Assembly (NCBI GenBank): GCA_031701365.1
Contig: GCA_031701365.1_4118.1
Direction: 5' to 3' (one strand)
Length of the DNA stretch: 64,000 bases
Origin: Escherichia coli
GTDB taxonomy: Bacteria > Pseudomonadota > Gammaproteobacteria > Enterobacterales > Enterobacteriaceae
Made by a program: the position numbers and the translations under genes. Below are positions 10,003-26,254 of this stretch, piece by piece. How positions within the stretch are numbered: the first letter of the stretch is position 1; every line of letters begins with the position of its first letter. Under the pieces are notes generated by a model. The model did no database searches. It saw only the letters and a list, made by a program, of their open reading frames with translations, and was not told where the DNA came from.

Positions 10003-10031
10003 GCACCAACGTTAATCATAGGGTACAGATT

Positions 10032-11023: not shown

Positions 11024-11384
11024 ACAAGTAATATTCCTTTTGAATACAAGAAGTGAAATGTATACAGAGTTTAAAGAGATTAATGCATTTTATCAGAATT
11101 TTGTAATTCAAGAGTTCAGTGATTTAATTACAGATGCATTATTTGAATTATCGGAAAAATACAAAGGAACAGAGTTCAGTGTTAAGAATGTATTACGTTC
11201 TTTATCAAAGCGTATAATAAAATTAGATCATTTTACATTTGACAATAAAGATTTATTCAGTCACAATCCAAGTACAGCTTTATATTTTATTCCTGATTCA
11301 GACAAAAATCATCCTATTCATTACGGATGGATTTTGTCGTACATAGTACAAGGAAAGGAGTATCCTATTAAATGGAACGATTAG
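10995..11384 (+). CDS. family B-like protein 3 (divergent)
   Basis: AFYQNFVIQE variant motif; placement in family tentative. Confidence 0.45.
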   Translation: MNPTIVQDLKQVIFLLNTRSEMYTEFKEINAFYQNFVIQEFSDLITDALFELSEKYKGTEFSVKNVLRSLSKRIIKLDHFTFDNKDLFSHNPSTALYFIPDSDKNHPIHYGWILSYIVQGKEYPIKWND

Positions 11385-11741
11385 GGCGATTAGATTATTA
11401 CACAATTAATACAAATTATTTGTTGCGTAATATAAAATCCGATTACAAAATATGGATAAAGAACAGAGATAGTATGTGTTATGAATTTTATTTAGATTAT
11501 GCCATCAAACGCTTTTTAAGAGAAGAACATTAATGCACACACCGCACAAAGAGCACACAGAGCACAAAAATACAAAAACGATAAATGTTTTAAATGATTC
11601 TTTATTGGTGAGTATAAATTTATATTATAAAATTCATTTAAATGGTGGTATTGAAAATTTTAGTTATTATTTGAGTACAATATCGCAAGAGCATTTAATA
11701 TACCAAGATCATTTATTGCACCCGAATCCATAAGGCGAATT

Positions 11742-12287
11742 ATGAATGAGATAGAATTATTAGCACACAAGATTAGTACAATAATGCTTATCCTAAATAA
11801 CAACCATCCTATATCGCAGATAGATGGAATCCTGAGTCAGAGGACAGGTGGTAGTTTATATTTGACATTAACAGAGGTTATCGCAAGGAATTACATTGAT
11901 ATTGAAATCGAGAACAGTGATGCATCAGGAAAGGTTGATGTAGGTGCATTAATCAGTTCAAATCCAGTATCAGCATCCCCATTGACCAAAGGTGTTAGTA
12001 CAGGATTCGAAGGGTATTTGTGGTACAATACCAATGATGATTATTTTATATATCAGCATTCCAATACAAATTATGATGAAGACAAATTTCAGTTCATAGA
12101 CCCTTATGATGAAGCTGAAGTATTTCAAAAATCATTAATCACAAAACCGCATGAGATGATGTATCTAATGTTATTCAGTACAATGCATTTGAATCCATTA
12201 ATTAAAGGTTTAAAATTTTATATTCAATTGAAATTAGTCCATGTAGTTTATGATTTATTAATGCAAGGATATAGTTATGAAGTATAA
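11742..12287 (+). CDS. family B protein 4
   Basis: AEVFQKSLITK. Confidence 0.6.
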   Translation: MNEIELLAHKISTIMLILNNNHPISQIDGILSQRTGGSLYLTLTEVIARNYIDIEIENSDASGKVDVGALISSNPVSASPLTKGVSTGFEGYLWYNTNDDYFIYQHSNTNYDEDKFQFIDPYDEAEVFQKSLITKPHEMMYLMLFSTMHLNPLIKGLKFYIQLKLVHVVYDLLMQGYSYEV

Positions 12288-12588
12288 AATGATGTATACC
12301 CCAGATATGATTTATGTTGAATTAGAAGATGATGACGATGGGTGGAATTTGATTTATTCAAGAAGTTCAGGTTGGTACATGGCACATTTAAATGATTCGA
12401 TAGTTACAGATTATTTTGTAGATTTCAATACATTATCCGATGAAGAATTGTTCCAACAGCAATTAGTAATTGACACGGGTGGTTATGATGTTTTATTATT
12501 AAAAAAGATACAGAAAGCTGTTATTGATTTTAAGCCCAAGATGTTGCAAAGGAAATATTATGACCTCGAAGTACCGTACCAGCAATGA
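12277..12588 (+). CDS. family B protein 5
   Basis: EELFQQQLVID. Confidence 0.6.
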   Translation: MKYKMMYTPDMIYVELEDDDDGWNLIYSRSSGWYMAHLNDSIVTDYFVDFNTLSDEELFQQQLVIDTGGYDVLLLKKIQKAVIDFKPKMLQRKYYDLEVPYQQ

Positions 12589-13126
12589 AATTCAGTACAC
12601 CTACGCTAATGCAATCATTATGGGACAAAAGTTAGCTTGTATTGTTGCAGCCTTATATAATGCCCAGAAATATCACAAGCGTCATTTCCACAAATGTATT
12701 GGTATTATTCCATCGAAGTACAATACATATATTGCGTGCACGAGTCATTTTGATAAACGATTCAATACACCTGATACCCCAAATGCCAGTAGTGTTATTG
12801 GTCTTTTGGATTTCGCACCTGGTGCTGTTATTGGAAAGAATGATTTAGAGTACGCATGGTATAATAAAAATGCACCGTTAGTAATGGTAAAATATGATAC
12901 AGAAACGAACAAAACAATAGAGTACAATACATATAAATCAGAGGAAGAATTTTTCCAAGGTTCATTGCTTGTGCCAGTGCGTTTGTTGTTTTATAATGTC
13001 CTTATTAGTACAGTACACAATAGTCCATTACACAAGAATCACAAAATTAATTTCAATTTTTGTGCTTATGCGATTGATGGTGTGTATGAGTGTTTAATGG
13101 AGGTATTGAGTTATGAAGCTGAATAA
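12560..13126 (+). CDS. family B protein 6
   Basis: EEFFQGSLLVP; start ATG 12560 after AAAGGA. Confidence 0.6.
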   Translation: MTSKYRTSNEIQYTYANAIIMGQKLACIVAALYNAQKYHKRHFHKCIGIIPSKYNTYIACTSHFDKRFNTPDTPNASSVIGLLDFAPGAVIGKNDLEYAWYNKNAPLVMVKYDTETNKTIEYNTYKSEEEFFQGSLLVPVRLLFYNVLISTVHNSPLHKNHKINFNFCAYAIDGVYECLMEVLSYEAE

Positions 13127-13454
13127 TACATTTGATATTAATAAGTTAAGAGAATGGTTTTATAGTATTGAAATTGAAGCCATCCCGTATCATAGATATG
13201 AACAATATAATTTAACCAGTATTGATATCAGTGAGTTGTACGCGTATTATCAAAGTGCATTAGAGATGCATAAGTTATTTTTGAGTACAGATTTTGTTCT
13301 AAATTACAATTTTGAGGAATTTAATAATTATAATTTAGTACAGAAATATGTAGTAGCAAAGTATATGTACCTTCAAGGAATTACAAGTAATTTGGAATTC
13401 AATACAGTCCTTGCTTTAGTTGAGGTAATTTTATGCAGTACATGTATGATTTAG
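13113..13454 (+). CDS. family B-like protein 7 (divergent)
   Basis: YAYYQSALEMH variant. Confidence 0.45.
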   Translation: MKLNNTFDINKLREWFYSIEIEAIPYHRYEQYNLTSIDISELYAYYQSALEMHKLFLSTDFVLNYNFEEFNNYNLVQKYVVAKYMYLQGITSNLEFNTVLALVEVILCSTCMI

Positions 13455-13939
13455 AGTTTAGTTTAGATGCTGCCTTTAAATTTGTTCACAAGATAGAAAC
13501 AATATACAGTACATTATGTGCAATAAAATCAGTAACAGAAGAGCTTGATGTTGGTGAAAAATATCAGGTATGGAATAATACATTTCTAAACAAAGAACGT
13601 TGCTCTACGGGGTTTAATATTTTAACATTTAATCCCAGCAATTGTTACCCAGAGAAGCATGAACGTTATCCGAATGACGACATGTGGTTTGATTACACAA
13701 AAGATGGTGATATGTCATCCCTTGTAGTTCCTGATGATTTTAATGCCGAAGATTTAACGGAAGAGTGGTGGTTTCAACAGAATTTAGTACACGATGATAT
13801 TGATTTATTTTTTTATGTAGTATTTAAAATGCTTTACCACAACAATATATTAAAAGATAGTGTGTTTTTTTCATGTCTATATATTGATGATTTGTACAAT
13901 GAAATCCAAATCAACATACCCAGAACGCCTGTATCGTAA
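13433..13939 (+). CDS. family B protein 8
   Basis: EEWWFQQNLVHD. Confidence 0.6.
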   Translation: MQYMYDLEFSLDAAFKFVHKIETIYSTLCAIKSVTEELDVGEKYQVWNNTFLNKERCSTGFNILTFNPSNCYPEKHERYPNDDMWFDYTKDGDMSSLVVPDDFNAEDLTEEWWFQQNLVHDDIDLFFYVVFKMLYHNNILKDSVFFSCLYIDDLYNEIQINIPRTPVS

Positions 13940-13964
13940 GATATGGGCTTTTTTCGTTTTGGTA

Positions 13965-13993
13965 TTGACAAAGAAGTGCAAAGCTGTTATCAT
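13965..13993 (+). promoter_or_regulatory. sigma70-like promoter
   Basis: -35 TTGACA 13965-13970, 17-bp spacer, -10 TATCAT. Confidence 0.4.
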
Positions 13994-14021
13994 GTGTAAT
14001 CATTTTAAAGGAGAACATATA

Positions 14022-14534
14022 GTGAGTTTCATAATCCCAAGTACATACGAAGATGCATCAAGTGCAGTTCATAAGATTCATTATATTTTTAATTTAATTA
14101 TTAGATCTGCAAAAATTAAAATGTATGCACCTCTTGTGACAAATAATCGAAATGAAGAAATTTTTATTAGCACAGACAAAATTATTTTTCCATATTTCAA
14201 TGAAGATAGATTGTGGTTCATACATTTAGCTGCATTACAAAAATATAAGATGTCAATTCGTAATAATTTGGATATACCGTTATATCATCCTGATATTGGA
14301 GAGGATGAATATTTTCAGTACAGTACAGTACACCGCCATGAAGATATCTTTGTTGCTATGCTTATTGCTAAATTGAATACCGTTGATTTGGAGCAGTACA
14401 AATACAATAATAAATCATGTAAGATCATAATCCCTGCATTCATAGCTCTTTATGATTATGTGGTGCATAACAAAAAAGATGATACATATGCTTTCAATGA
14501 AGAGTATTTGAATTTTTTTAAGGAGAACATATGA
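14022..14534 (+). CDS. family B protein 9 (GTG start)
   Basis: DEYFQYSTVHR; AAAGGAG RBS 8 nt upstream of in-frame GTG 14022; ORF track gives 13860. Confidence 0.55.
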   Translation: MSFIIPSTYEDASSAVHKIHYIFNLIIRSAKIKMYAPLVTNNRNEEIFISTDKIIFPYFNEDRLWFIHLAALQKYKMSIRNNLDIPLYHPDIGEDEYFQYSTVHRHEDIFVAMLIAKLNTVDLEQYKYNNKSCKIIIPAFIALYDYVVHNKKDDTYAFNEEYLNFFKENI

Positions 14535-15058
14535 GCAGTGAAGTGCTGAAATCAATGACATTCAATGAAATTGGTACATTTAAAGATAAGATCATTGATT
14601 GCATTGAATACATGATTTGTAGTAATATCGAAAGTATCGAGATATTTAACAAGACAAATCGCTCTTACCATATGATGTACATTGCAAACAATAATGGTAT
14701 CATTCCATTTATTTCGGATAGTACAATATGGTACGCATGTGATACGAAAAAAACCACAATAGGTTTACATTCATTTGAGACACATTATGATCTAATTATT
14801 CCTGAACATTGTATGCAAGAAGAAGAATATTTTCAAATGCAATGTATACATTCACCATTAGTGTTGTTTAGTTTATATATTATACCTTATATCACCAAAT
14901 GTGTTCATGAGAATAAAGCTCCGTGGAATCATGAATTTGTATCGTTGAAGTTATTGTATAATGTATTAGTAGAATATTATGATTACAGGCACAATGGTAC
15001 AATCAGTGATGTATGGGATTTTGAATCGCTAAGGGTGAAAACATACACAGGTGAATGA
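14531..15058 (+). CDS. family B protein 10
   Basis: EEYFQMQCIHS; AAGGAG RBS. Confidence 0.6.
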   Translation: MSSEVLKSMTFNEIGTFKDKIIDCIEYMICSNIESIEIFNKTNRSYHMMYIANNNGIIPFISDSTIWYACDTKKTTIGLHSFETHYDLIIPEHCMQEEEYFQMQCIHSPLVLFSLYIIPYITKCVHENKAPWNHEFVSLKLLYNVLVEYYDYRHNGTISDVWDFESLRVKTYTGE

Positions 15059-15674
15059 TATGACCAGAATTAAAATGTATGATTTGATGCAGTACAGTAA
15101 AATTGCCATTCCAGTGCTTAATAAAGTGCTGGATGCATTCATTGCCAAATACCCTGAGAATTCAGTGTTATGTATTCCATTTAGTGTTCCAGATAAAGAT
15201 GATATATTCCAAGTGAATGTCAGTACACGTGGTATTACATTGCAGCAGAAATACATGGATACGGAATATTATGGAATAAAGTTGGATTCAGTACAGGGTT
15301 CAAAATCAGCCTATGATTTTTTTGTTCCTAATAACATCGAGTCATGGGAAACAAACATTTCAAAGAAAGATGAAAATGATGTTCCTATTAGTGGTGTGTT
15401 CAACAATAAAGTTTTTTATTATTACGAAACCGACAAATTCCCTGAAGAGTTATATTACAATTCAGAAATGAATGAAGATGTAGATGCATTCATGTTTCAA
15501 TTATCTTTAGTACATGATATCATTGATGTTCAAGAGTTAAGAGCAGAAATCAATTTAGCTAAAGAGTTATCGGACATGCTGCCACCGTTTAGTATGCTTT
15601 TTTGTGAAGGAGGTTATTTTTCAAAAGAAGTGTTTGAACATTTCGTAGATGTTGTAAAAGGGTTGGATATATAG
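15051..15674 (+). CDS. family B protein 11
   Basis: DAFMFQLSLVHD. Confidence 0.6.
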   Translation: MNDMTRIKMYDLMQYSKIAIPVLNKVLDAFIAKYPENSVLCIPFSVPDKDDIFQVNVSTRGITLQQKYMDTEYYGIKLDSVQGSKSAYDFFVPNNIESWETNISKKDENDVPISGVFNNKVFYYYETDKFPEELYYNSEMNEDVDAFMFQLSLVHDIIDVQELRAEINLAKELSDMLPPFSMLFCEGGYFSKEVFEHFVDVVKGLDI

Positions 15675-15675
15675 T

Positions 15676-15870
15676 ATGCTTATAATTGATATTAAACAAA
15701 AATACCGTAAGTTTGATTGGTTCACCGATAGTTTCCAGCTTGAATTATTACATATGAATATCAGTGAAACATTATGTGCAGAAACACAAGATGAATTTGA
15801 TGATAGAGTGATGAACATAGTAATGCTTTCTTGCTTTAAACATTTTGGTTATTTTTTCGGGCAGAATTGA
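15676..15870 (+). CDS. hypothetical small protein (weak family B-like FQLELL)
   Basis: 64-aa ORF; ATGA-type junction. Confidence 0.4.
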   Translation: MLIIDIKQKYRKFDWFTDSFQLELLHMNISETLCAETQDEFDDRVMNIVMLSCFKHFGYFFGQN

Positions 15871-15877
15871 GGTAAAA

Positions 15878-16393
15878 ATGCATCAACACAAGCATCATTC
15901 ATATGATTTTGCAATTAACATTATGAAGTTTATTCGAGCGTTGGAGGATGGGAAGCTTAGTCATAAGTACAGGAAAGAGGGTAACAATTGGTTCAGAAAT
16001 GATTCCGAGTTCAGTTGTCATAAAATCGTGTATAGTAATCAGTACAGTGCCAATTACCTACAAGATGTAGTGATGTGTTTTGAATACGTGTTGCAGTTCA
16101 GGGGTTCAATCCAAGATGAGTTGATGGAGAACATGTACATCCGATACCTTCCAATGCTCAAAGATGAAAATGTATTATTAAATTCAATATATCAACGAGT
16201 TCGTGAAATAGAGTGCAGGGATATATTAGATACAGAAGAATCGTATTTCCAGCAATCCCTGATTTATTCACCTGATTTATTACAGGTACATAATTTGTTT
16301 AATACATTACGTCAGAACATCAGTACAGACATATTTTTGTCATTATCGGATTATGATACATTTGTCAAAGATTTAGAGGAAATAGGTTTATGA
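15878..16393 (+). CDS. family B protein 12
   Basis: ESYFQQSLIYS; start ATG 15878 after GAGG. Confidence 0.6.
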   Translation: MHQHKHHSYDFAINIMKFIRALEDGKLSHKYRKEGNNWFRNDSEFSCHKIVYSNQYSANYLQDVVMCFEYVLQFRGSIQDELMENMYIRYLPMLKDENVLLNSIYQRVREIECRDILDTEESYFQQSLIYSPDLLQVHNLFNTLRQNISTDIFLSLSDYDTFVKDLEEIGL

Positions 16394-16734
16394 GTAGATT
16401 TTCAGTTTATATAGTAAACGTCAGTAAAGATGGTAGTTTAATTGAATTTGATGTAGTTGATAACAATGATAATTCATATGGTATTAAGGTACAGGACAAT
16501 GATGTGCAGTTCAGTACAAGAACAAATTTTGAAAATCCAGTCCAAGTTCCTAATTTCATAGAAGATGAAGCAGCACGTTTCCAATACGAAACGGCATATG
16601 ACAATGTACATATGCATATTATTATGCAAACGAGTTTAGTTCAATTAGTTCCTTTGTTCAGACAAAATATATATGTACATGAAGTGTCGATTAATGGCAT
16701 TCAAAGTTCCGTTTTGTTCGATACAAATATGTAA
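16390..16734 (+). CDS. family B protein 13
   Basis: AARFQYETAYD. Confidence 0.55.
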   Translation: MSRFSVYIVNVSKDGSLIEFDVVDNNDNSYGIKVQDNDVQFSTRTNFENPVQVPNFIEDEAARFQYETAYDNVHMHIIMQTSLVQLVPLFRQNIYVHEVSINGIQSSVLFDTNM

Positions 16735-16744
16735 GGAAAGTACA

Positions 16745-17296
16745 ATGAGTTCAATGAGTTTATTAGATACATTAGAAAAAGACAGAAGTGCAATTAAGCG
16801 TTTAAAAGAGCAAGTACAAAAGATTGTATACAACGTTGATAAGTTTGAGGTTCCCGGAAGATTTGGTGATATTTCCCATACGGAGATCAAATCCCTTAAG
16901 TCAGATTTGTTGATTAAAAATAAAAATGGGTTGATTTTAGTTTTGAGTTCAGATATGATGGGGGCAACACATAGTTATAATGCCGTATCGGTGCGTTCCG
17001 AGTGTGAAGGTATATATCTATCACAGGGTTTCAATAGCGAGACACAGGTTTGTTTTTGTGATGCAGTACATGACCCTATGAAGTTCACGAGAAGTGAAGC
17101 CCAAGCGTTATTAGAGCTATCAGACGAGAGTTTGTTTCAGTACAGTACAATGTATGACAATGATAAGATTCGTTGTATGTACGCTGTAAAGCATTATACA
17201 CAGGAGTTTTCTGGATTTGCATACCTTTTAGTTAGAACCAATACCAGATATATTGATATGTTAGAAGATTACATCGATAAAGTTGTTAATGTATGA
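16745..17296 (+). CDS. family B protein 14
   Basis: ESLFQYSTMYD; start ATG 16745 after AAGGA. Confidence 0.6.
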   Translation: MSSMSLLDTLEKDRSAIKRLKEQVQKIVYNVDKFEVPGRFGDISHTEIKSLKSDLLIKNKNGLILVLSSDMMGATHSYNAVSVRSECEGIYLSQGFNSETQVCFCDAVHDPMKFTRSEAQALLELSDESLFQYSTMYDNDKIRCMYAVKHYTQEFSGFAYLLVRTNTRYIDMLEDYIDKVVNV

Positions 17297-17308
17297 TTTT
17301 GTGATGGG

Positions 17309-17488
17309 ATGATGCTAATGAAAGAGTTATTTGAAGATCAGTTCAATACATATGTGGATAATATTCTTTATTCCAGTCGTGCCAGTCAACGAGGAAATCG
17401 TGCTTACAATATTGATTACCTATTAGTGGTGCTGAGTTCACAGTACACCAATGCGGTACAAAGGGTTTATTATGAAAAGTGCAAGTAA
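17309..17488 (+). CDS. hypothetical small protein (59 aa, not in ORF track)
   Basis: Hand-translated MMLMKELFEDQF...VYYEKCK. Confidence 0.35.
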   Translation: MMLMKELFEDQFNTYVDNILYSSRASQRGNRAYNIDYLLVVLSSQYTNAVQRVYYEKCK

Positions 17489-17681
17489 TAGTGATATTGC
17501 AAAGGAGAAGTTTAAGTGCAGTTTAGATTACGGTTTAAATAATTTTCTTACATGCACAATGTACAGGGATGATGATTATGAACAATCCGTAATTTCGTTG
17601 CACAGATATTTCGAAATAATTTACGCAAGATATCTTAGAAGGTTAGATGGGATAGGGGATTGGAATTATGATTACGTTTGA
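17472..17681 (+). CDS. hypothetical small protein
   Basis: ORF 17451-17681; likely start ATG 17472. Confidence 0.4.
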   Translation: MKSASNSDIAKEKFKCSLDYGLNNFLTCTMYRDDDYEQSVISLHRYFEIIYARYLRRLDGIGDWNYDYV

Positions 17682-17892
17682 AGAGCCGGAAGTGGTATAT
17701 TGCTTTAGTGTGAAAGGTTTTGAATACATGATGGATTCGATTTTGAAGGATACATATTTGGTTCAGATTGCAGTTGCACATAATGCAGATAATGCATTAC
17801 AGCGAGTATTGAATATATACGAGAGGACGAGTCGAAGGCTTTGTGCAATGAAAAGGATTGAAGAAATAAAGGTTTCTAGGCTGAATAAATAG
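17668..17892 (+). CDS. hypothetical small protein
   Basis: ORF only. Confidence 0.4.
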   Translation: MITFEEPEVVYCFSVKGFEYMMDSILKDTYLVQIAVAHNADNALQRVLNIYERTSRRLCAMKRIEEIKVSRLNK

Positions 17893-18090
17893 AGACGTTT
17901 CATTTTGACAGGCCGCTGGAGGGGGTCAAAAAAATTTCCGCTGAAAAACATGCTAAGGTATATGTTTAATATAAAGTTTTATATTGTGTTTTTCAGAGTA
18001 CAGTTCATGTTTCCTTAAACAAAAAATACCCCGCCACCGAACGTGCTCTTTATATTGGAGTTTACCTTATTAATTATAGTAGAGATTGAG

Positions 18091-18468
18091 ATGGAAATAA
18101 AATATAATGAATTTTGTGCAAGGACATGGATGTACACTGGTGAGTTAGTTACGCACTCTAACTTATACAAGGGTGATTTAAACTACGCTAGGGACAAGAT
18201 TTTAAAGTACTGGAATGCTGACTTTTATTTGATGGATTTTAGTACTGGGTTTAGGGGTAAAGCAACCGAGATGTTGGACTATACAGTACTTGATGATGCT
18301 GCACTGTTTCAGGCGGCATTAGTATTTGATAAGAAGTACATCTGTACATTAGAAGAGATGATTGAATTACAGCGTAGAATTAAATGTATTCACAGGGAAT
18401 GTATAGATATCTGGTGCAGTACTGGTGAAGATGATTTTTGTAATCATTTCAATCTAGGGGAAGAGTGA
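18091..18468 (+). CDS. family B protein 15
   Basis: AALFQAALVFDKKYICTLEE; start ATG 18091. Confidence 0.6.
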   Translation: MEIKYNEFCARTWMYTGELVTHSNLYKGDLNYARDKILKYWNADFYLMDFSTGFRGKATEMLDYTVLDDAALFQAALVFDKKYICTLEEMIELQRRIKCIHRECIDIWCSTGEDDFCNHFNLGEE

Positions 18469-18824
18469 TGGAATTTGATTTTTTAATATCAGTACATTCT
18501 TTTAAGCACAGTTTTCAGTACTTTTGTAATTTAAACAAAGGTGATTTAATGCACAGTGCGAATGAGTATATTCATTACACTCAGGGTAAATTTACATTCA
18601 TTGATTACAGTTCATTACAGTATCCACACCAAGATATGCCGGACTATACATTAATGGATACCGCAGAACTATTCCAAGAATCATTAGTATTTGATAAGAA
18701 GTACATATGTACCTTTGAAGAAGTAATTGCTATACAAAATGAAATGAAGAAGTATGCTGCTTTGAATAAACCCAATGCAAGTATTAATCAAGAATACAAA
18801 TTCAATTTAGGAATTCAAGAATGA
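18465..18824 (+). CDS. family B protein 16
   Basis: AELFQESLVFDKKYICTFEE; close paralog of 18091-18468. Confidence 0.65.
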   Translation: MMEFDFLISVHSFKHSFQYFCNLNKGDLMHSANEYIHYTQGKFTFIDYSSLQYPHQDMPDYTLMDTAELFQESLVFDKKYICTFEEVIAIQNEMKKYAALNKPNASINQEYKFNLGIQE

Positions 18825-19180
18825 CATATGATTATTCTATGTACTATTATAAGTTACCTAAAGGATGGGACTTGTGCTGTAATCTTATTAAGGGAGACTC
18901 GGAACATGAGTTGAGTTTATATATGCACTACAAAGATTCTTGTTTTAAATTTATTCATGTATTACATGATGGCTATGACTATGAATCTGAGAGTCTCATA
19001 GATTATACAGTACTGGACGATGGTGAACTATTTCAGGAAGCATTAGTGTTTGATAAGAATAAGTACTCCTGTACATTTGAAGAAATGGTTTCTTTGCAAA
19101 ATGAAATGAAGAGATTTGAAAAAGAAAACGTATTTAATCCATCCCCATCAAGAACGAATAATTATTATTTCAATATATGA
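18821..19180 (+). CDS. family B protein 17
   Basis: GELFQEALVFDKNKYSCTFEE; close paralog. Confidence 0.65.
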   Translation: MTYDYSMYYYKLPKGWDLCCNLIKGDSEHELSLYMHYKDSCFKFIHVLHDGYDYESESLIDYTVLDDGELFQEALVFDKNKYSCTFEEMVSLQNEMKRFEKENVFNPSPSRTNNYYFNI

Positions 19181-19189
19181 GATTATAAA

Positions 19190-19660
19190 ATGACATTACA
19201 GAGTTCATTGGAAAAAGCAAAGAAGATTCATGAGTACATGAATATGGCAAAAGAAGGTTCAGTTTACGGTGTTTTCAAAGACACAAGTACTCAATATTAT
19301 GTACCGGATAACCTCCTTTATAATGACTGCTCAGATACAGAAACGTGCGTACTGGATACCGACCCTAATGATTATGAATGCTTCATTAATATGCATAATG
19401 AGTACATGGTCTATATTAATGATTCAGATACTATCTACAGTACTGACAGCGATTCCAATGACATTATAATTCCGAGTGAAGTACTGGAAGGTCCGTGGGA
19501 TAGTGAAGAGTATTACTTCCAACAAAGTACTGTATACGATAATGAAGTACTTGATGTTATTATAATTATGTGGTACTTTAAAAGTATTGGTTCTGGGAAC
19601 TTCTTTTTCGATTACAAATACGTAAAGAAAACTGTAGATAACGGTATTAACAGGGGTTAA
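19190..19660 (+). CDS. family B protein 18
   Basis: EEYYFQQSTVYD; N-terminus MTLQSSLEKAKKIHEY. Confidence 0.65.
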   Translation: MTLQSSLEKAKKIHEYMNMAKEGSVYGVFKDTSTQYYVPDNLLYNDCSDTETCVLDTDPNDYECFINMHNEYMVYINDSDTIYSTDSDSNDIIIPSEVLEGPWDSEEYYFQQSTVYDNEVLDVIIIMWYFKSIGSGNFFFDYKYVKKTVDNGINRG

Positions 19661-19661
19661 A

Positions 19662-20132
19662 ATGAGTTTAGAAAGAGCATTAGAGATTGCGAAGTTAATT
19701 GATTTATGCAGCAAAGAAATTGTATCAAATTGTCTCAATGGATATCTATTCAAGGAAGGTAAATCATATTGTCGAATGATATACGATGACAGTAGTGAAT
19801 ATATCCATATGTATGAAGAAAACTTAGATGATTCTGACATAGTACTCACAGGATGTGATGTTAATTTGGAAGATAATTACATGTACTTCTGCCGTGATGC
19901 TGATATTTTAATCCAAGATTCATTAATTCAAACAGGTGCACCAGAGGTATATCTTCCGTATTCAGTACTGGATAATAACTGGGGTAGTGAAGATTACTAT
20001 TTCCAGCAGAGTACTATATATAATGAAGATATACTTGACAAACTTGTTATTTCTTGGTACTTTCATAACACGGATTATAGTAGCTTCTACATAGACTTGG
20101 ATCTACTAAGAGTACTTAAAGAGGATATATGA
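19662..20132 (+). CDS. family B protein 19
   Basis: EDYYFQQSTIYN; N-terminus MSLERALEIAK. Confidence 0.65.
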   Translation: MSLERALEIAKLIDLCSKEIVSNCLNGYLFKEGKSYCRMIYDDSSEYIHMYEENLDDSDIVLTGCDVNLEDNYMYFCRDADILIQDSLIQTGAPEVYLPYSVLDNNWGSEDYYFQQSTIYNEDILDKLVISWYFHNTDYSSFYIDLDLLRVLKEDI

Positions 20133-20569
20133 GTTTAGAAAGAGCACTAGAACTAGCCAACAAAATACATCAGTACCATGATAAAATAAAAAGTGGGTTC
20201 TATGCTGATAAAGTACATGCATATGGGAATGAATATTATCTCACAGGAGTAAAGAGATACTCTAATGATATTTTACTTATGGGTCATGATAAAGACTATA
20301 CTATACAGTACTCTTCATGTAGTCAATATACTAGTTTTATGGTATATATTCCTGGTACTAAGATTACTTTTGACACATCAAATACACCTGTTGACTTCGG
20401 GGTACTTGATGGCCCGTGGGGTACTGAAGAGTATTACTTCCAACAGAGTCTCATTTTTAACCAAGAAATGCTTGATTCCTTGGTTGTGTTGTGGTACTTT
20501 AAGGAATTGAATTTTGAACCATTCTTTCTTGACTGGGGTTCATGTGAGTATTTAAGTTCAGGGGAATAA
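20129..20569 (+). CDS. family B protein 20
   Basis: EEYYFQQSLIFN; N-terminus MSLERALELANK. Confidence 0.65.
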   Translation: MSLERALELANKIHQYHDKIKSGFYADKVHAYGNEYYLTGVKRYSNDILLMGHDKDYTIQYSSCSQYTSFMVYIPGTKITFDTSNTPVDFGVLDGPWGTEEYYFQQSLIFNQEMLDSLVVLWYFKELNFEPFFLDWGSCEYLSSGE

Positions 20570-20571
20570 TA

Positions 20572-21060
20572 ATGTCATTACAAAGTGCATTGAAAGAAGC
20601 AAAGAAGATTCATGAGTACATGATTATGGTACAGGAAGGTTCAGTACCAGGTGTATACAAAACATCAGATACGGAATTCTTCGTTAAGGATAGAGATGAT
20701 TATGACGAATCAGAGGTATGTGCAGAAACATTAGTACTGCACACTGATACTGGTGACAGTGATAACTGTGAATATCATATGTACAACCAGTACATTAGTT
20801 ATTGCCGTAATGAAGATATTACCATCTACAACACAGATAGTGATGCTGATGACACTATCATTCCTTATTCAGTACTGGAAGGTCAGTGGGATAGTGAAGA
20901 ATATTACTTCCAGAATAGTACTATCTACAATGAAGAAGAACTGGATGTTATTGTGATTATGTGGTATTTCAAAAGTATTGACTCCAGTAGTTTCTATTTT
21001 GATTATGAATATGTAGAGAATACGATAGGAGAAGGTAATGTCATTACAAAGTGCTCTTGA
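20572..21060 (+). CDS. family B protein 21
   Basis: EEYYFQNSTIYN; N-terminus MSLQSALKEAKK. Confidence 0.65.
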   Translation: MSLQSALKEAKKIHEYMIMVQEGSVPGVYKTSDTEFFVKDRDDYDESEVCAETLVLHTDTGDSDNCEYHMYNQYISYCRNEDITIYNTDSDADDTIIPYSVLEGQWDSEEYYFQNSTIYNEEELDVIVIMWYFKSIDSSSFYFDYEYVENTIGEGNVITKCS

Positions 21061-21490
21061 AAAAGCAAAAGAACTACATGGATACGTTGAAGATATAAAG
21101 GCAGAAAAGTTCAAAGAAGTGTACAAAGCCGAGAACGGTAACTACTACAAAGATGAAATGTATAATAACTCCGTTGGAGTAAGGGTTATTCTTGGGTTGA
21201 ATTCCAATAGCCCAGTGTCGTATTCGGAATACAATAGAGATGCAGAATTCATTAGTTATGTTGAAAATGGTAGCATTCGTTTTATTAATAGACAAAAACC
21301 ATTAACATTGAATTGTGAAGTACTGAATGGTCCGTGGAATAGTGAAGAGTATTACTTCCAAAACAGTACTGTATATGATGATGAAGTACTTGAAGCATTA
21401 GTTATTATGTGGTACTTCAAGAGTGTTAGCTGTCCTCGATTTTATTTGGATTTCGAAGAACTTCGTAAAGATCCAGAAGGTATAGAATGA
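21038..21490 (+). CDS. family B protein 22
   Basis: EEYYFQNSTVYD; N-terminus MSLQSALEKAKE. Confidence 0.65.
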   Translation: MSLQSALEKAKELHGYVEDIKAEKFKEVYKAENGNYYKDEMYNNSVGVRVILGLNSNSPVSYSEYNRDAEFISYVENGSIRFINRQKPLTLNCEVLNGPWNSEEYYFQNSTVYDDEVLEALVIMWYFKSVSCPRFYLDFEELRKDPEGIE

Positions 21491-21801
21491 AAAACTTATT
21501 CAGTGTTCAGTACGTCCCTGGTGAAATTGGTTTATTATATCTATTTGACCATGATAATTCATTATTACTAGTAGTGAAGAAATGCCAAGCTAGTTCGTTT
21601 GTTGAATACATTCACGATAGTGAATACATTCCTGATTTCCTAGAGTGTGATTATCACGATGAACATGAATCATTTATTTTTCAGGAATCACTAGTATGGG
21701 ATAAATCGATCAACTTCTTTACGTTAATTGAATTACAAAAGCAGGTGAAGTATTATTGGGATTACTTAATTACACAGGATTACATTGAGATTGAAACATA
21801 A
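21487..21801 (+). CDS. family B protein 23
   Basis: ESFIFQESLVWD. Confidence 0.6.
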   Translation: MKNLFSVQYVPGEIGLLYLFDHDNSLLLVVKKCQASSFVEYIHDSEYIPDFLECDYHDEHESFIFQESLVWDKSINFFTLIELQKQVKYYWDYLITQDYIEIET

Positions 21802-22109
21802 TGACAAAAAATGAATTTGATTCACTTTGTACGGTTTATAATTCATTGACAGAAATACCTGACTTTATTAATTACATTTCAGCGTTAAATCATATTATGC
21901 ATAGTTTTGAACAATCGTTTGAAGAGAAATATGCAGGTAGAAAAGTTCTATGTCATATGTCAATGTACTTGGGAGATGGTGAGCCTTACACTACCAGTAC
22001 TACATGTGAAATAAAAAAATATAATATATTATTGGGCACAATAGAATTCACAGTATCCAATGGTGGTAGTTATATGTACTTTAGAGATGGAGTGGTTGAA
22101 TTATTATGA
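21801..22109 (+). CDS. hypothetical small protein (MYLGDGE motif)
   Basis: EEKYAGRKVLCHMSMYLGDGE; related to 2047-2304. Confidence 0.55.
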   Translation: MTKNEFDSLCTVYNSLTEIPDFINYISALNHIMHSFEQSFEEKYAGRKVLCHMSMYLGDGEPYTTSTTCEIKKYNILLGTIEFTVSNGGSYMYFRDGVVELL

Positions 22110-22555
22110 GTTACGAAAGTGCAATCAAGAAAGCAAATGATATTCTAAAAGTTGTTCAGTTCTTCAAAGAAAATCCTGAATACCTAGATGATGAAAACCA
22201 TGATCACGATGAGAGATTGAGAAGAAAAATTGTCTCTTTATTTGACACTAATGCGGATAATTATAGTCTAATTGAGTTAGCATACGATTATATTTCATTG
22301 AACCGAAACGGACATTTAGTTAATATAGAAAGACATGCGAGTGAAGAATCTTTTAAAATTTCAGACATTTTATCCCTGAGTACTGAAGAAGGGTACTTCC
22401 AGGGTAGTACTGTTTATGAACAAGGAACACTTGACAATCTATGCACATTCAGTGTAATATATCAGAAATCAGTACTGGATGTATTTTATCTTGACACTGC
22501 TGAACTGGATACACTAATCAATTTTGTTACTACTGAAGAGGCCACATTTGAGTGA
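22106..22555 (+). CDS. family B protein 24
   Basis: EEGYFQGSTVYE. Confidence 0.6.
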   Translation: MSYESAIKKANDILKVVQFFKENPEYLDDENHDHDERLRRKIVSLFDTNADNYSLIELAYDYISLNRNGHLVNIERHASEESFKISDILSLSTEEGYFQGSTVYEQGTLDNLCTFSVIYQKSVLDVFYLDTAELDTLINFVTTEEATFE

Positions 22556-23088
22556 TGAAAGTTAACATCAATGACTTTGATGCATTACAAGATTTATCAA
22601 AAAAGATTCGCATAATCGTACCAGTACTCAAAAAATGCAGTACTGGTTTAATTGATCCTAGTACTGTTGTTAATGAGAAGTACAATTTTCATCGTGTATT
22701 ACAGGGTACAGGTGCATTTCAGAAGTGTGATGTACGTGAGAAACACGTAATTGATACATCATTGTTTTCTATTGGTGCACCTGTGTCGAATAATTCTATT
22801 TTCCTGGATAACGCAGGAAATATTCAACAATTAACATTTAAGAAAAGGAAAAAGAACAATAACATTGGTGTGTACGCGATGAAGTGGGGTCAACCTGATT
22901 TGAAGCGTGAAATTCACATCCCTAAGTACAATTACAATGCATTTGACGAACAGTGTTTTCAACTATCGTGTACTGACCCTGACTATGCAATCATTCAGTT
23001 CTATATGGAATTGCAGATAGCATTTAACAGTAATTTATATATTAACTTGTTGGCAATGAACATCGATGAAGTATTCAAAAACATTTAA
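22552..23088 (+). CDS. family B protein 25
   Basis: DEQCFQLSCTDP. Confidence 0.55.
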   Translation: MMKVNINDFDALQDLSKKIRIIVPVLKKCSTGLIDPSTVVNEKYNFHRVLQGTGAFQKCDVREKHVIDTSLFSIGAPVSNNSIFLDNAGNIQQLTFKKRKKNNNIGVYAMKWGQPDLKREIHIPKYNYNAFDEQCFQLSCTDPDYAIIQFYMELQIAFNSNLYINLLAMNIDEVFKNI

Positions 23089-23284
23089 TCGAATTGAATA
23101 CATGAGAACTGTGAGTGCAGTGTGGGATATATGGTTCACTACTAAACCAAAAATGGATTACCATGACTTTAAGCTCTTGTTCTTCGTTGGCTCTAACAAA
23201 CAGGATGTTGCAATGAAGGGTTATATTCAGCACTTACAGGAACTAATTCAGAAGAGGGTTAATGAAAATAATAGACCAAGATGA
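23066..23284 (+). CDS. family A small protein 28 (displaced copy)
   Basis: VGSNKQDVAM. Confidence 0.5.
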   Translation: MKYSKTFNRIEYMRTVSAVWDIWFTTKPKMDYHDFKLLFFVGSNKQDVAMKGYIQHLQELIQKRVNENNRPR

Positions 23285-23453
23285 TATTGCTAAACTATTC
23301 AATATATATTCTACTAGAATGATGCAAACCGACTCATATGGTACGGAATTCAAAGAGTTGAAAGTACTGATGTACTTGGGAACCCAATATCAGGAACAAG
23401 TTATTTTGGAATATATTAATTCGTTGAAGAAGGATATCCGTTATGTACGATGA
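23262..23453 (+). CDS. family A small protein 29 (displaced copy)
   Basis: LGTQYQEQVI. Confidence 0.55.
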   Translation: MKIIDQDDIAKLFNIYSTRMMQTDSYGTEFKELKVLMYLGTQYQEQVILEYINSLKKDIRYVR

Positions 23454-24003
23454 TTTAGATCTTGCGTTTGAACGTATGGTAATTTTAATGCAATGTGCAG
23501 AAATGCATGAAACAATCCGTCGCACCAAAGGGATTGAATATACAAGTAAACTATTCTCATACGAAAGTCGTCGAGGGATGGATCATTTTTACTGCACTGA
23601 TTGTTCAAAGTTTTCAGTACTGAAATATTATCATCCTACTGTTTCCAATAATAGTTTAATATCCACATATGACGGTGATCTGTTTAGTGTAATGTATGAC
23701 ACATTACATCCATCAATTTCAATCTATAAAGATTGCGATAGTAGTTTATCGTATATAATTGAAGATTACTTATCTCCTAATACTGAAGAGAATATTTTTC
23801 AGAACAGTGTGTTGCATGATGAATTAAGTATAAAATGCATCTATATGTTCAATAAGTTAAAAGAGTACGCCGATAATAATTACTTCATTGATGATTTAGC
23901 GGTATTGTCTGTTTCCGTTTTTAATACAAATGATATTGATATGAAATACTATAATGAGATTTATAAAGTACATCATATGTATAAGGAACTATTATGTCAA
24001 TAA
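23443..24003 (+). CDS. family B protein 26
   Basis: EENIFQNSVLHD. Confidence 0.6.
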   Translation: MYDDLDLAFERMVILMQCAEMHETIRRTKGIEYTSKLFSYESRRGMDHFYCTDCSKFSVLKYYHPTVSNNSLISTYDGDLFSVMYDTLHPSISIYKDCDSSLSYIIEDYLSPNTEENIFQNSVLHDELSIKCIYMFNKLKEYADNNYFIDDLAVLSVSVFNTNDIDMKYYNEIYKVHHMYKELLCQ

Positions 24004-24596
24004 ATGCAAATAAATGTTGTAGTGCAGATGTGCATTTGTTTTTTAAGAAATTGGCAAATGATATTATATATATGCAGGAAATGATTTATCACAAACGAGC
24101 GGATTTAGAAAAAGCATTAGTACAGTTCTCATTTATGCTTGATGGTGATATATTTCTAGAGAGTGATGCATTGCGAATAGTATTAGACAAAAATGCTAAA
24201 AGATTTTTATTTCATGTAGATAATAAATTATGTTCCTCCGTATGTCGTACTTTTTATAATCGTGATTCGGACTTATATCAATTCCTTTATTCTAAAGGTG
24301 CAGTAGAAGCATCATATGGTGATGGTTATGCCCTAGGAAAGAGTATTCCATTTATGAAATCATTTAAAATAGAACACATCAGTACTGATGAAGATGCAAT
24401 GTTCACAAATGATATAACTATGGGACGTGAAGATGCAATGCGATATATTACAAATTCTATGTATACATTCTTTCAACGAACAGAATTTGATAATGTATAT
24501 ATATCAAATGTAAATATTTTCAATGACCTGTGTCAGTACTTGAGAAGTGTTTGTAATTTCGATGAAAGCTATTGTAAGCTATATACTGAGGTATAA
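23994..24596 (+). CDS. family B-like protein 27 (divergent)
   Basis: MYTFFQRTEFD variant. Confidence 0.45.
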   Translation: MSINANKCCSADVHLFFKKLANDIIYMQEMIYHKRADLEKALVQFSFMLDGDIFLESDALRIVLDKNAKRFLFHVDNKLCSSVCRTFYNRDSDLYQFLYSKGAVEASYGDGYALGKSIPFMKSFKIEHISTDEDAMFTNDITMGREDAMRYITNSMYTFFQRTEFDNVYISNVNIFNDLCQYLRSVCNFDESYCKLYTEV

Positions 24597-24601
24597 AACA
24601 A

Positions 24602-24964
24602 ATGAACACATTAAGTATTACATACTATACAACTAAAAAATTAGTTACTTGTTTAATATCTTTGAAGACAAACCATGATGATATGTTTGATATGGCTGCA
24701 TATGAATTAGAATTATCAGAAGATGGCTTCAAGAGCTATGAAGTATATAGCTATGTCCGTGAAGATGTAATTGACACTACACTAATGCAAGAGGATGAGT
24801 TATTCCAAGAAAGTTTAGTATGGGATAATAAGTACGATTGTAACTTTGATTTCTTATGTTTAATCCAGAAAGAAATGAAAAGAATCTTTGATAATTATCC
24901 AATCAAACGTTTCAGTACTGCACCTGAGCAATATAAAAGGATTATATTCACCTATGAAGATTGA
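24602..24964 (+). CDS. family B protein 28
   Basis: DELFQESLVWD. Confidence 0.6.
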   Translation: MNTLSITYYTTKKLVTCLISLKTNHDDMFDMAAYELELSEDGFKSYEVYSYVREDVIDTTLMQEDELFQESLVWDNKYDCNFDFLCLIQKEMKRIFDNYPIKRFSTAPEQYKRIIFTYED

Positions 24965-25331
24965 ATTTGAAGTTATTACATATAGTATAGGTGATGGTAT
25001 CCGTTGCTATGTACAAGCAAGGCATATGGTTCCTGATGATAAACTGTCACCAAAAAGCTTCTGTATCACACAAGATCTCTTAGATATCAACGGAGAGAAC
25101 AAGTACATATATTATCTTACTAAGGGTTATTGTAGTACACGTGGTTTTAATATTGTAGCTGTTTCTAGAGATGAAATTGATGATTTAACTGAGTACGGGG
25201 AAGAAGAGATGTTCCAGTACAGTACTGTTTTTAATGAACTGGATGTGTTTCTGTTACGAAAAATACAACACATTATGCAAGAATGTTTGCATCATAAGAG
25301 AGGTATGGTATGCGACGTGAATCTGAATTAG
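24954..25331 (+). CDS. family B protein 29
   Basis: EEMFQYSTVFN; start ATG 24954. Confidence 0.6.
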   Translation: MKIEFEVITYSIGDGIRCYVQARHMVPDDKLSPKSFCITQDLLDINGENKYIYYLTKGYCSTRGFNIVAVSRDEIDDLTEYGEEEMFQYSTVFNELDVFLLRKIQHIMQECLHHKRGMVCDVNLN

Positions 25332-25651: not shown

Positions 25652-25658
25652 GGTTTAT

Positions 25659-26195: not shown

Positions 26196-26254
26196 CACCC
26201 TCCGATTCTTTGTGATATAATCTCTTTATATTAATTGTAAAGGGTTATATCACA

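Follow-up and report, generated by a model that had tools for sequence, protein, structure and literature searches.

Why does a short protein motif shared by dozens of paralogous genes so often coincide with a DNA palindrome? In the window, by which we mean the whole 64-kb stretch of DNA that was analysed, the genes of one family (family B) encode an F-Q-x-S-T motif whose Ser-Thr pair is often written AGT-ACT, and an earlier note on this DNA had offered two explanations: either the site AGTACT is selected as DNA and shapes the protein motif, or repeated duplication of the family has seeded the genome with the site. The window comes from an Asteriusvirus jumbo coliphage, 97% identical to phage 121Q; it starts within the left direct terminal repeat (DTR), of which it covers the right end, and continues through about 60 kb of early genes. 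Nearly all genes of the region lie on one strand. The limit of the DTR was taken from the annotation of phage vB_Ec-M-J (1-21525), in which the DTR end maps to window position 4095. The features discussed below are collected in Table 1.

Table 1. Coordinates of features in the 64-kb window
Feature	Position	Strand	Remark
Left direct terminal repeat (DTR), right end, immediate-early genes	1..4095	.	AGTACT ~6.8 per kb
Sigma-70 early promoter, consensus TTGACA-16-TATAAT	1122..1149	+	AGTACT at 1137, abutting the -10
Sigma-70 early promoter, consensus	2312..2339	+	AGTACT at 2317, overlapping the -35 (TTGACAGTACT)
Block B, first 4.4 kb after the DTR, ~18 small paralogous genes	3971..8400	+	no AGTAC on the + strand
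Family B cluster, ~39 divergent paralogs, EE..FQxS[TL][VIL]	9597..37395	+	one further member at 48484-49062
Strong conserved sigma-70-type promoter TTGACAGTACTTTTCATTACTGATATAGT	9974..10002	+	ACT depletion begins here
ACT-free zone, ~17 genes including family B members	10633..18135	+	no ACT on the coding strand
F-Q-Y-S-T-V as CAG-TAC-AGT-ACA-GTA (AGTACA)	14317..14332	+	family B motif
F-Q-Y-S-T-M as CAG-TAC-AGT-ACA-ATG (AGTACA)	17139..17149	+	family B motif
Promoter-like site TAGAGA-17-TATAAT	18080..18108	+	consensus match only; marks the zone end
AGTACT = S-T of FQQSTV	19526..19531	.	family B motif
AGTACT = S-T of FQQSTI	20010..20015	.	family B motif
AGTACT = S-T of FQNSTI	20917..20922	.	family B motif
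AGTACT = S-T of FQNSTV	21365..21370	.	family B motif
AGTACT = S-T of FQGSTV	22406..22411	.	family B motif
Dam-family N6-adenine DNA methyltransferase (PF05869), candidate writer of a mark on the palindrome	42192..42713	+	domain match

AGTACT is enriched throughout the phage genome

The over-representation of AGTACT claimed in the earlier note was borne out. It is the commonest hexamer of the window, with 200 copies in 64 kb compared to 17.2 ± 4.2 in dinucleotide shuffles, and CAGTACTG occurs 44 times (0.6 expected). In vB_Ec-M-J we counted 1125 copies of AGTACT in 378 kb (128 expected) and 256 of CAGTACTG (4 expected), the excess extending across the entire 378 kb, structural and minus-strand genes included. 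A second genus is also enriched, since phage RaK2 (genus Alcyoneusvirus) carries 213 copies in 50 kb where 17 are expected. Overall, the enrichment amounts to 9-12-fold, or about one copy per 330 bp, with a density of ~3 per kb genome-wide, a peak of ~7 per kb in the DTR and a minimum of 2 per kb in late genes. Between genomes that are 84% identical, 72% of AGTACT sites are conserved in position, compared to 44% for all hexamers.

The family B motif follows a genome-wide pressure

Family B consists of 36-40 very divergent paralogs that share 9-37% amino-acid identity and have EE..FQxS in common. They fall into PHROGs of unknown function, and comparison of a confident AF2 model with the PDB gave no match. 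In 17 members the motif contains S-T, and the pair is spelled AGT-ACT in 10, AGT-ACA in four, AGC-ACT in two and AGT-ACC in one, so that the word 'often' in the earlier note was fair. Five of the seven examples it had named are indeed AGT-ACT, while near 14320 and near 17140 the DNA is CAGTACAGTACA and thus contains AGTACA, because a ban on ACT described below makes the same residues AGT-ACA.

The motif and the palindrome do coincide at 11 sites (10 at S-T and one at Q-Y-S), but these are only 11 of the 200 copies in the window and 11 of the 58-59 inside family B. Moreover, the rate of AGT-ACT at the motif S-T, 59% (67% outside the ACT-free zone), is close to that of any S-T in the window (56%). 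Tabulating codon choice, as the earlier note had suggested, gave no difference between S-T pairs in family B (28 of 50) and elsewhere (49 of 88), both being AGT-ACT in 56% of cases against 13% expected; in RaK2, AGT-ACT makes up 44% of S-T over the whole genome and 5 of the 12 at the motif. Since the motif's Ser-Thr is spelled AGT-ACT at the general S-T rate, its overlap with the palindrome is a by-product of the pressure for AGTACT that acts genome-wide.

Masking of the 40 family B genes, also proposed in the earlier note, left 141 copies in 44.7 kb, where 12.2 ± 3.5 are expected, so the enrichment persists without the family. Inside family B there are 59 copies in 19.3 kb (4.8 expected), a roughly 12-fold excess as found outside, and the densities are 3.25 and 3.08 per kb, respectively. 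That repeated duplication spread an AGTACT-bearing motif and thereby made the enrichment is suggested by the size of the family (~40 genes) and by the majority of motif S-T members that use AGT-ACT, but the idea has practically no chance of being correct, given how few sites the motif holds, an excess identical in masked and unmasked DNA that holds over the whole genome, and paralogs so divergent that synonymous positions are saturated and shared codons are therefore not inherited. We accordingly rejected seeding by duplication, as the copies are neither concentrated in family B nor mostly at homologous positions.

AGTACT is selected as a double-stranded DNA site

Synonymous-codon shuffling within genes yielded 49 ± 6 genic copies of AGTACT compared to the 178 observed. 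These are distributed over the three reading frames as 77, 39 and 62, and 22 more lie outside called genes. The flanks are symmetric, with C at position -1 in 45% of sites (A 23%, T 19.5%, G 12.5%) and G at +1 in 45%, and there is no dependence between the two flanks. The extended consensus in the phage is T-C-AGTACT-G-A; that of RaK2 is TCAGTACTGA. AGTACT thus displays the compositional excess, flank symmetry and positional conservation of a selected palindromic site in double-stranded DNA.

AGT and ACT are common codons for Ser and Thr (37% and 36%, respectively), which could make the palindrome a mere consequence of preferred codons or codon pairs (AGT, ACT, TAC, GTA, CTN). We consider such a translation artefact extremely improbable, since synonymous shuffles fall far short of the observed count, the palindrome occurs in all three frames, in intergenic DNA and in promoters, its flanks are symmetric, and it itself inflates the codon frequencies; an origin in codon usage or codon-pair bias was rejected on the shuffle and frame tests. 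AGTACT is a genome-wide double-stranded-DNA signal that is selected as DNA. The first alternative of the earlier note, a selected DNA site, was therefore upheld by the excess over synonymous shuffles, the presence in all frames, the second genus and the site conservation. Its corollary, an influence of the site on the protein motif, holds only in a general sense: S-T, V-L and Q-Y dipeptides are 1.6-2.2-fold over-represented across the proteome, but family B does not stand out in this respect, and F, Q and S, which are invariant in the motif, are independent of AGTACT. We propose that (C)AGTACT(G) is positively selected as a symmetric double-stranded site over the whole jumbo-phage genome, and that wherever the protein permits (S-T, V-L, [QKE]-Y-x) codon choice spells AGTACT.

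Copies of the palindrome also sit at fixed offsets within early sigma-70 promoters, +15 (TAGTACTGTATAAT) and +5 (TTGACAGTACT), the former being found in 20 promoter-like sites of vB_Ec-M-J. Because of these fixed offsets and the symmetric flanks, we infer that the reader of AGTACT is a dimeric factor, for instance a DNA-binding protein, operator-like or of the nucleoid type, or else a methyltransferase whose mark would label the DNA as self. Most AGTACT sites are intragenic, and an operator role is therefore possible for a minority only. In addition to the Dam-family enzyme (Table 1), the phage encodes a second methyltransferase, of the C5 type (PF00145), and these two enzymes are the only candidates for the cognate factor.

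Short words that rise far above composition through DNA-level selection, and that are accommodated within genes via codon and amino-acid choice, are also represented by Chi, DUS/USS, KOPS and GATC (Dam/SeqA). AGTACT differs from these in being a viral palindrome of 6-8 bp, enriched 9-12-fold in two jumbo-phage genera and placed inside early promoters. The SlmA sites of E. coli, reportedly of consensus GTGAGTACTCAC, have the same central hexamer, and SlmA is likewise dimeric with many sites. SlmA requires G at position -1, with GTG/CAC arms flanking AGTACT, whereas the phage consensus lacks these arms and G is the rarest base at -1. We therefore rejected the identification of AGTACT as a SlmA site.

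ACT is absent from one strand of a 7.5-kb early block

Downstream of the promoter at 9974-10002, the coding strand is subject to a second pattern. Within the ACT-free zone there is no ACT in 7504 bp compared to ~130 expected (53, 36 and 40 in the three frames, with none observed in any). No other trinucleotide desert in the 378-kb genome is as large: for the runner-up, the genome-wide rate of the missing word predicts only 23 copies in the gap. The avoidance reaches into every codon context: none of 109 Thr codons is ACT, CTN Leu codons are missing after codons ending in A (0 of 51, compared to 49 of 153 after other codons), and NAC codons are missing before codons starting with T (0 of 121, compared to 127 of 421 before other codons). 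TCT is reduced to 0.32 times. No AGTACT occurs between 10634 and 18206, and AGTACA stands in for it with 39 copies that keep both symmetric flanks. The complementary strand retains ACT, as AGT occurs 196 times on the + strand.

Upstream of the 9974-10002 promoter ACT has a density of 23 per kb, while downstream there are three further ACT, all within AGTACT, and then none. The first ACT after the zone is at 18136, just behind a probable gene start (ATG at 18130, Shine-Dalgarno AAGGA); we found no terminator at this end, which is intergenic and beside a promoter-like site, and within the zone itself there are promoter-like sites and a single terminator-like site, so that it may comprise more than one transcript.

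The zone is also present in 121Q, vB_Ec-M-J and TH47, and the promoter 29-mer is identical in the latter two. In ph0011 and UE-S1, by contrast, the constraint is relaxed and AGTACT is back, with the promoter retained. At 79 sites of the zone, two genomes differ at a position able to create ACT, and none has ACT, compared to 54-58% outside the zone. Across the genomes compared, purifying selection maintains the depletion of ACT in four, and in one sister lineage it has decayed.

Block B, at the start of the unique region, follows a rule of its own, with TGTACT (8 copies) taking the place of the palindrome. The pattern recurs in 121Q and vB_Ec-M-J, and its statistics are weaker than those of the ACT-free zone. 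Type III restriction strand bias was considered and rejected: blocks with a single orientation are confined to 4.4 and 7.5 kb, the palindrome provides both orientations elsewhere, and the banned word of the zone is a triplet. We regard it as highly probable that two nucleic-acid-level constraints, selection for AGTACT and the ban on ACT, are superimposed here and that neither is due to family B.

The ACT ban may protect early transcripts

From the 9974-10002 promoter to ~18100, the coding strand is barred from ACT, with TCT partly avoided, presumably so that early transcripts or their exposed non-template strand escape a sequence-specific factor recognising ACU/ACT. The ban is probably an escape from a sequence-specific nuclease or similar factor, for which an mRNA-interferase-type endoribonuclease appears the most likely candidate. 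Comparable transcripts are the engineered ACA-less mRNAs used with MazF, the natural GCU-free mRNAs of MqsR and the early mRNAs controlled by RegB at GGAG in T4. As in these, synonymous and context-dependent codon choice keeps the sense strand free of a triplet whatever the frame, and the transcripts of the zone are early and start at a defined promoter; unlike them, the zone is a natural phage block of 7.5-8.5 kb with ~17 genes, and its triplet is ACU. To our knowledge there is no ACU-specific RNase. A review of toxins likewise has none, the closest being Kid (UUACU) and ChpBK (ACY). Pfam scans of 405 phage ORFs recognised no RNase, the only hit being a ParE-like toxin domain in the DTR.

A tentative extension, which we hold to be possible rather than likely, is that the ACT-free block acts as a natural 'single-protein-production' device against an early ACU-cleaving endoribonuclease. 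Such an enzyme would destroy host mRNAs and most phage mRNAs early in infection and may be phage-borne, for example the immediate-early ParE/RelE-fold protein of the DTR, or a host abortive-infection toxin. If so, the ACU-less, family-B-rich operon of 17 genes would be the sole message to survive and be translated, and ph0011 and UE-S1 would represent a lineage that no longer encounters the nuclease or has lost it.

A single factor could instead account for both phenomena if AGTACT works at the RNA level. AGUACU might, for example, be where a phage endoribonuclease of the RegB type preferentially cuts to time the decay of mRNAs; ACU would then be the minimal core, and transcripts of the ACT-free operon would be immune. 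Such a reading is unlikely. It fits the peak of AGTACT in the immediate-early DTR and its scarcity in late genes, the appearance of a palindrome in mRNA from either strand, the start of the ban at a promoter with the remaining downstream ACTs all in AGTACT, and a phage RNA-repair set (Rnl1, PNKP, 2H and cREC). However, symmetric C(-1)/G(+1) flanks amid genes that lie nearly all on one strand are unexpected for a reader of single-stranded RNA, sites occupy fixed offsets in untranscribed promoter spacers, and there is no excess of close, hairpin-forming AGTACT pairs.

Replication provides another explanation, which we judge to be quite unlikely: 5'-ACT-3', and weakly TCT, would be the triplet of the phage primase, AGTACT would template pppGUACU, transcripts from the promoter at 9974 would prime an origin, and ~8 kb of the displaced + strand would be cleared of priming sites. 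Primase triplets are GTC in T7, GTT/GCT in T4 and CTG for DnaG. The banned word resembles the T4 and T7 triplets in being strand-specific, in having a pyrimidine at its centre and one degenerate flank, and in a graded second-best variant (ACT >> TCT); the zone starts at a promoter, as the origins of T4 and T7 do, lies 6 kb from the DTR boundary and leaves ACT on the complementary strand. Against this, an unprimed 8-kb strand has no known benefit, ACT outside palindromes does not appear generally enriched from the vB_Ec-M-J counts, Block B is not a mirror image (AGT is present 57 times), and ph0011 and UE-S1 lost the constraint yet kept the promoter. In addition, we know of no genome that clears a primase triplet from several kilobases.

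It is more doubtful still that the ban shields the exposed non-template strand of heavily transcribed early genes from an enzyme that attacks single-stranded DNA at WCT, such as an ADP-ribosyltransferase of the DarT type, a deaminase or a nickase. The position of the zone on the non-template strand behind a strong promoter, the short-motif preference typical of such enzymes (TNTC/TCT for DarT) and a weak Macro-domain match in the phage all agree with the idea, but the DTR and the units between the blocks are equally strongly transcribed and full of ACT. In addition, the zone is enriched in TTT, which has been reported as a motif of DarT.

Local site avoidance has precedents in the DNA of other phages: the first-step-transfer DNA of T5 is without EcoRI sites, and the EcoP15I sites of T7 are all in one orientation. 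As in these, a region near the end of the genome is under its own strand-specific sequence rule, with the difference that the avoided word is a trinucleotide rather than a restriction site of 5-6 bp, and that the zone begins 6 kb into the unique region with a promoter at its start.

AGTACT enrichment in the early region of the phage

Window positions 18000-23000 match Escherichia phage 121Q at 97% identity and other Asteriusvirus jumbo phages at 94-97%; when more relatives were sought in IMG/VR, 121Q was the only match. Across 59.8 kb, vB_Ec-M-J is 84% identical to the window, and the end of the direct terminal repeat (DTR) annotated at 1-21525 in its record aligns with window position 4095, so that the window opens with the final 4 kb of the left DTR and continues through the 60 kb of unique DNA that come next. 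It covers the early region, with its short hypothetical genes, and 146 of its 152 ORFs lie on the + strand.

AGTACT was the commonest hexamer of the window, with 200 copies compared to 17.2 ± 4.2 (maximum 30) in dinucleotide-preserving shuffles, and CAGTACTG occurred 44 times where base composition predicts 0.6. The whole vB_Ec-M-J genome held 1125 copies of AGTACT (128 expected) and 256 of CAGTACTG (4 expected). AGTACT density was ~7 per kb both within the DTR and over the 6 kb that precede its right copy, and 2-4 per kb across the remainder, structural and minus-strand genes included. AGTACT was also the most enriched hexamer in 50 kb of the Alcyoneusvirus RaK2 (213 versus 17 expected), with the surrounding consensus TCAGTACTGA. 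Permuting synonymous codons within each gene left 49 ± 6 sites compared to 178 observed (31 compared to 120 in genes outside family B), indicating that the excess is not translational. By reading frame the sites divided 77/39/62, another 22 falling outside called + strand genes. Dipeptides able to carry the site were over-represented (S-T 138 versus 75 expected, V-L 172 versus 104, Q-Y 67 versus 39), while T-S, checked alongside them, was not; the DNA word thus has a general influence on protein composition.

The flanks of AGTACT were symmetric, with 45% C directly before the word (-1) and 45% G directly after it (+1), left and right behaving independently, and with T-rich and A-rich positions further out. 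Between the window and vB_Ec-M-J the word was conserved at 72% of sites; hexamers overall reached 44%, and other common ones 42-63%. AGTACT is a positively selected, symmetric and positionally conserved double-stranded DNA word. Its spacing was essentially Poisson, with a small excess at 20-25 bp only, which rules out hairpin or cruciform site pairs; a Vsr-like repair bias was ruled out by the undepleted one-mismatch neighbours, and an SlmA site by the finding that G is the rarest base at -1.

Two further observations concern the distribution of sites in vB_Ec-M-J. A 2.25-kb gap without AGTAC or GTACT at 65363-67613 of the record (L004 20363-22613) spans EcMJ_170, annotated as an 'endonuclease', together with the gene that follows; it looks like a recent insertion yet to acquire the palindrome, and the corresponding place in the window showed no comparable gap without sites. 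AGTACT is also enriched where 14 minus-strand genes stand in tandem (333206-350767; L003 4633-22194); these carry the annotation 'regulator of chromosome condensation', are Kelch/RCC1-like beta-propellers and lie just before the right-end early region.

The family B motif carries no special share of the sites

The motif EE..[YFL]FQxS[TL][VIL] identified 36 ORFs of family B, a set of divergent paralogues, and a few more were found by eye. F is invariant and Q and S exceed 90% in their alignment, pairwise identity being only 9-37%. The family had no match in Pfam, and its PHROGs matches were all of unknown function. An AlphaFold2 model built from a 30-paralogue alignment was confident (pLDDT 89, pTM 0.83), with an N-terminal helix, a 7-stranded sheet and C-terminal helices; a PDB structure search with this model gave no significant neighbour, and the predicted fold may be new. 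RaK2 also has the family, with at least 19 genes in 50 kb.

The earlier note had described the S-T of this motif as frequently written AGT-ACT, and had offered either selection of the DNA site or seeding by duplication of the family as the cause. The overlap was partly confirmed: five of the seven motif positions it named do read AGT-ACT, but those near 14320 and 17140 read CAG-TAC-AGT-ACA. S-T stands at the motif in 17 members, which write it AGT-ACT in 10 cases, AGT-ACA in 4, AGT-ACC in 1 and AGC-ACT in 2. Masking 40 family B genes left 141 sites in the remaining 44.7 kb compared to 12.2 ± 3.5 expected, and the family itself held 59 sites in 19.3 kb compared to 4.8 ± 1.9 in shuffles. The excess of ~12-fold is therefore the same inside the family and with it removed, which refutes duplication as its source. 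Nor was codon choice specific to the family, since AGT-ACT wrote 56% of S-T dipeptides both within family B (28 of 50) and elsewhere (49 of 88), compared to 13% expected from codon frequencies; in RaK2 it accounted for 44% of S-T overall and for 5 of the 12 motif cases. The motif holds only 11 of the 200 sites, and S-T anywhere in this phage genome shows the same coincidence. Selection on the DNA site is supported, but as a genome-wide property without family B specificity.

AGTACT at early promoters

Strong sigma-70-type promoters of the DTR (vB_Ec-M-J L002 1-21525; window 1-4095) carry AGTACT at fixed offsets. At offset +15 it abuts the -10 element, as TTGACA-N9-TAGTACTG-TATAAT (20 cases), in a promoter form with an extended -10 element, TAGTACTGTATAAT; at offset +5 it overlaps the -35 element, as TTGACAGTACT (10 cases). 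These fixed positions suggest operator-like control of immediate-early transcription. We infer that a dimeric factor reads AGTACT. This putative reader could bind in the manner of an operator-like or nucleoid-type protein, or the word could serve as a methyltransferase-based mark; as candidate writers, the window encodes a Dam-family N6A methyltransferase and the rest of the phage genome a C5 methyltransferase. The genome papers on CBB and Sharanji cover promoters and methylases and do not contain the AGTACT word, and a search of the available literature library found no paper combining AGTACT and 'jumbo'. Should the palindrome serve for binding or marking, it would belong to an undescribed genome-wide regulatory or 'self-identity' system, common to Asteriusvirus and Alcyoneusvirus jumbo phages and wired into early promoters, that visibly shapes codon use and protein composition in both.

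A 7.5-kb zone is purged of ACT on the coding strand

The two failing examples lie in a region without any AGTACT between 10634 and 18206, and they exposed a more remarkable result than the family B coincidence. Counts by region gave 41 AGTAC, 39 of them AGTACA, and no GTACT at 10641-18205, and an unbiased scan found that the + strand of the window contains no ACT at all in the 7504 bp of 10633-18135, where ~130 are expected. The ACT-free stretch measures 7511 bp in 121Q and 8458 bp in vB_Ec-M-J (~175 expected). When each trinucleotide was scored by the copies expected, at its genome-wide rate, in its longest copy-free gap, ACT scored 175 in the 378-kb vB_Ec-M-J genome and the runner-up 23. To our knowledge, this is the largest natural trinucleotide-purged sequence.

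Within the zone TCT falls to 0.32x; CCT and GCT keep normal levels, and those of the complement AGT range from normal to high. Threonine was encoded by ACT in 0 of 109 cases compared to 42% elsewhere; leucine CTN followed an A-ending codon in 0 of 51 cases compared to 55% elsewhere, and other codons in 49 of 153; and Asn, His, Asp or Tyr NAC preceded a T-starting codon in 0 of 121 cases compared to 30% elsewhere, and other codons in 127 of 421. With 53, 36 and 40 copies expected in the three frames and none observed, the ban on ACT works in every frame through context-dependent synonymous choice. The zone is 81% identical between the window and vB_Ec-M-J, and at 79 sites that differ at the sole ACT-creating position the ACT allele occurred in neither genome (0/79), compared to 54-58% at comparable variable sites outside. 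The ban is under ongoing purifying selection.

The AGTACA sites of the zone keep palindromic flanks (C at -1 in 19 of 39, G at +1 in 17 of 39) and look like palindromes minimally changed to remove ACT. Because both flanks are kept, we treated the palindrome and the ACT ban as separate, superimposed constraints. An origin by C-to-T hypermutation was rejected, as AGTACT became AGTACA and not AGTATT, coding sequences are intact and ACT is missing from all 79 variable sites.

Boundaries of the zone and its decay in one lineage

Up to 9992 ACT occurs at ~23 per kb. Downstream of a conserved promoter (see table) there are only three copies (10246, 10498 and 10632), all within AGTACT, and the next is at 18136. 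This 29-mer promoter is identical, and the ACT pattern alike, in vB_Ec-M-J and TH47, the latter with one ACT in 8.1 kb. The zone end follows a 195-bp intergenic region, and no terminator was detected there.

Positions of features in the window and in two related genomes
Feature	Sequence	Position
Promoters with embedded AGTACT (examples)	window	1122, 2312, 2767, 9974
Conserved promoter TTGACAGTACTTTTCATTACTGATATAGT	window	9974-10002
Internal promoter-like sites of the zone	window	12470, 13965
Terminator-like site inside the zone	window	13927
Promoter-like site adjoining the zone end	window	18080-18108
Probable start codon at the zone end	window	18130
Family B genes	window	9597-37395, one more at 48484
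Decayed zone	ph0011 (L011)	~3143-10073
Decayed zone	UE-S1 (L013)	~3859-10813

In the homologous 7 kb of ph0011 and UE-S1, ACT is merely depleted, at ~2.5 per kb compared to ~20 outside. Restored AGTACT sites account for 5 of the 20 copies in ph0011. Both genomes have a promoter variant in common, which suggests a single relaxation event. The 50 kb of RaK2 that we examined held no ACT desert. Contrasting the gene content of zone-keeping and zone-decayed genomes could reveal the selective agent.

A sequence-specific factor may impose the ACT ban

Since the ban is strand-specific and frame-independent, starts at a promoter and was lost in one lineage, we infer a sequence-specific factor acting on zone transcripts or on the non-template strand. 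The explanation we rank first is that the transcripts would escape an ACU-recognising endoribonuclease. ACA-less mRNAs under MazF, GCU-free mRNAs under MqsR and Kid, which acts at UUACU, offer precedents. A toxin review listed no ACU-specific toxin, and a local phmmer search with approximate RelE, ParE, MazF and related sequences gave no match.

Two sets of phage genes are leads towards the endoribonuclease model, not evidence for it. Extensive genes for RNA repair and end processing lie at window 50010-53181 and elsewhere in vB_Ec-M-J (L004/L005/L008), comprising an RNA-end repair set (T4-type RNA ligase 1 (Rnl1), PNKP, 2H phosphoesterase and cREC domains), a Nudt16-like decapping enzyme, PTH2 and a weak Macro-domain match; this repertoire would imply that the phage regularly meets RNA-cleaving defences. 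In addition, the DTR of vB_Ec-M-J encodes, at 15832-16083 (L002), an 84-aa immediate-early protein with a ParE-like toxin domain (PF24732, 42.6 bits), with a homologue in 121Q gene 305, which falls immediately before the window. This RelE/ParE-fold protein is a candidate host-shutoff factor or RNase.

As rivals to RNase escape, ACT could be a triplet recognised by the primase and excluded from the strand that a transcript-primed origin displaces, or the ban could protect exposed non-template single-stranded DNA. A single factor acting on RNA, with AGUACU as its optimal site and ACU as its core, is attractive, but we disfavour it because the flanks of AGTACT are symmetric and copies lie in promoter spacers. 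Whether the factor is an RNase, a primase or a single-stranded-DNA enzyme, the zone points to the genes bound to escape it, and its anonymous 'hypothetical' early genes become experimentally approachable. The zone could lead to a new strategy of host takeover or anti-defence, and to a sequence-specific nuclease that would be new and of use as a tool.

A second block lacks AGTAC

Block B, at 3971-8400 and beginning directly after the DTR end, contains no AGTAC on its + strand, where ~23 are expected at the density downstream of 18206 and ~5 from base composition. It has nine GTACT, eight of them TGTACT; no GTAC follows an A, and the palindrome takes the form C-TGTACT-G in 8 copies. Block B is conserved in 121Q and vB_Ec-M-J, and the recurrence of both it and the zone in these genomes shows that they are not sequencing artefacts; base-calling error at a modified motif was likewise rejected, as the same AGTACA and TGTACT blocks occur in the independently sequenced 121Q, vB_Ec-M-J and TH47. 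A mirror image of the zone was ruled out, since AGT is present in 57 copies. Several of the TGTACT copies look paralogous.
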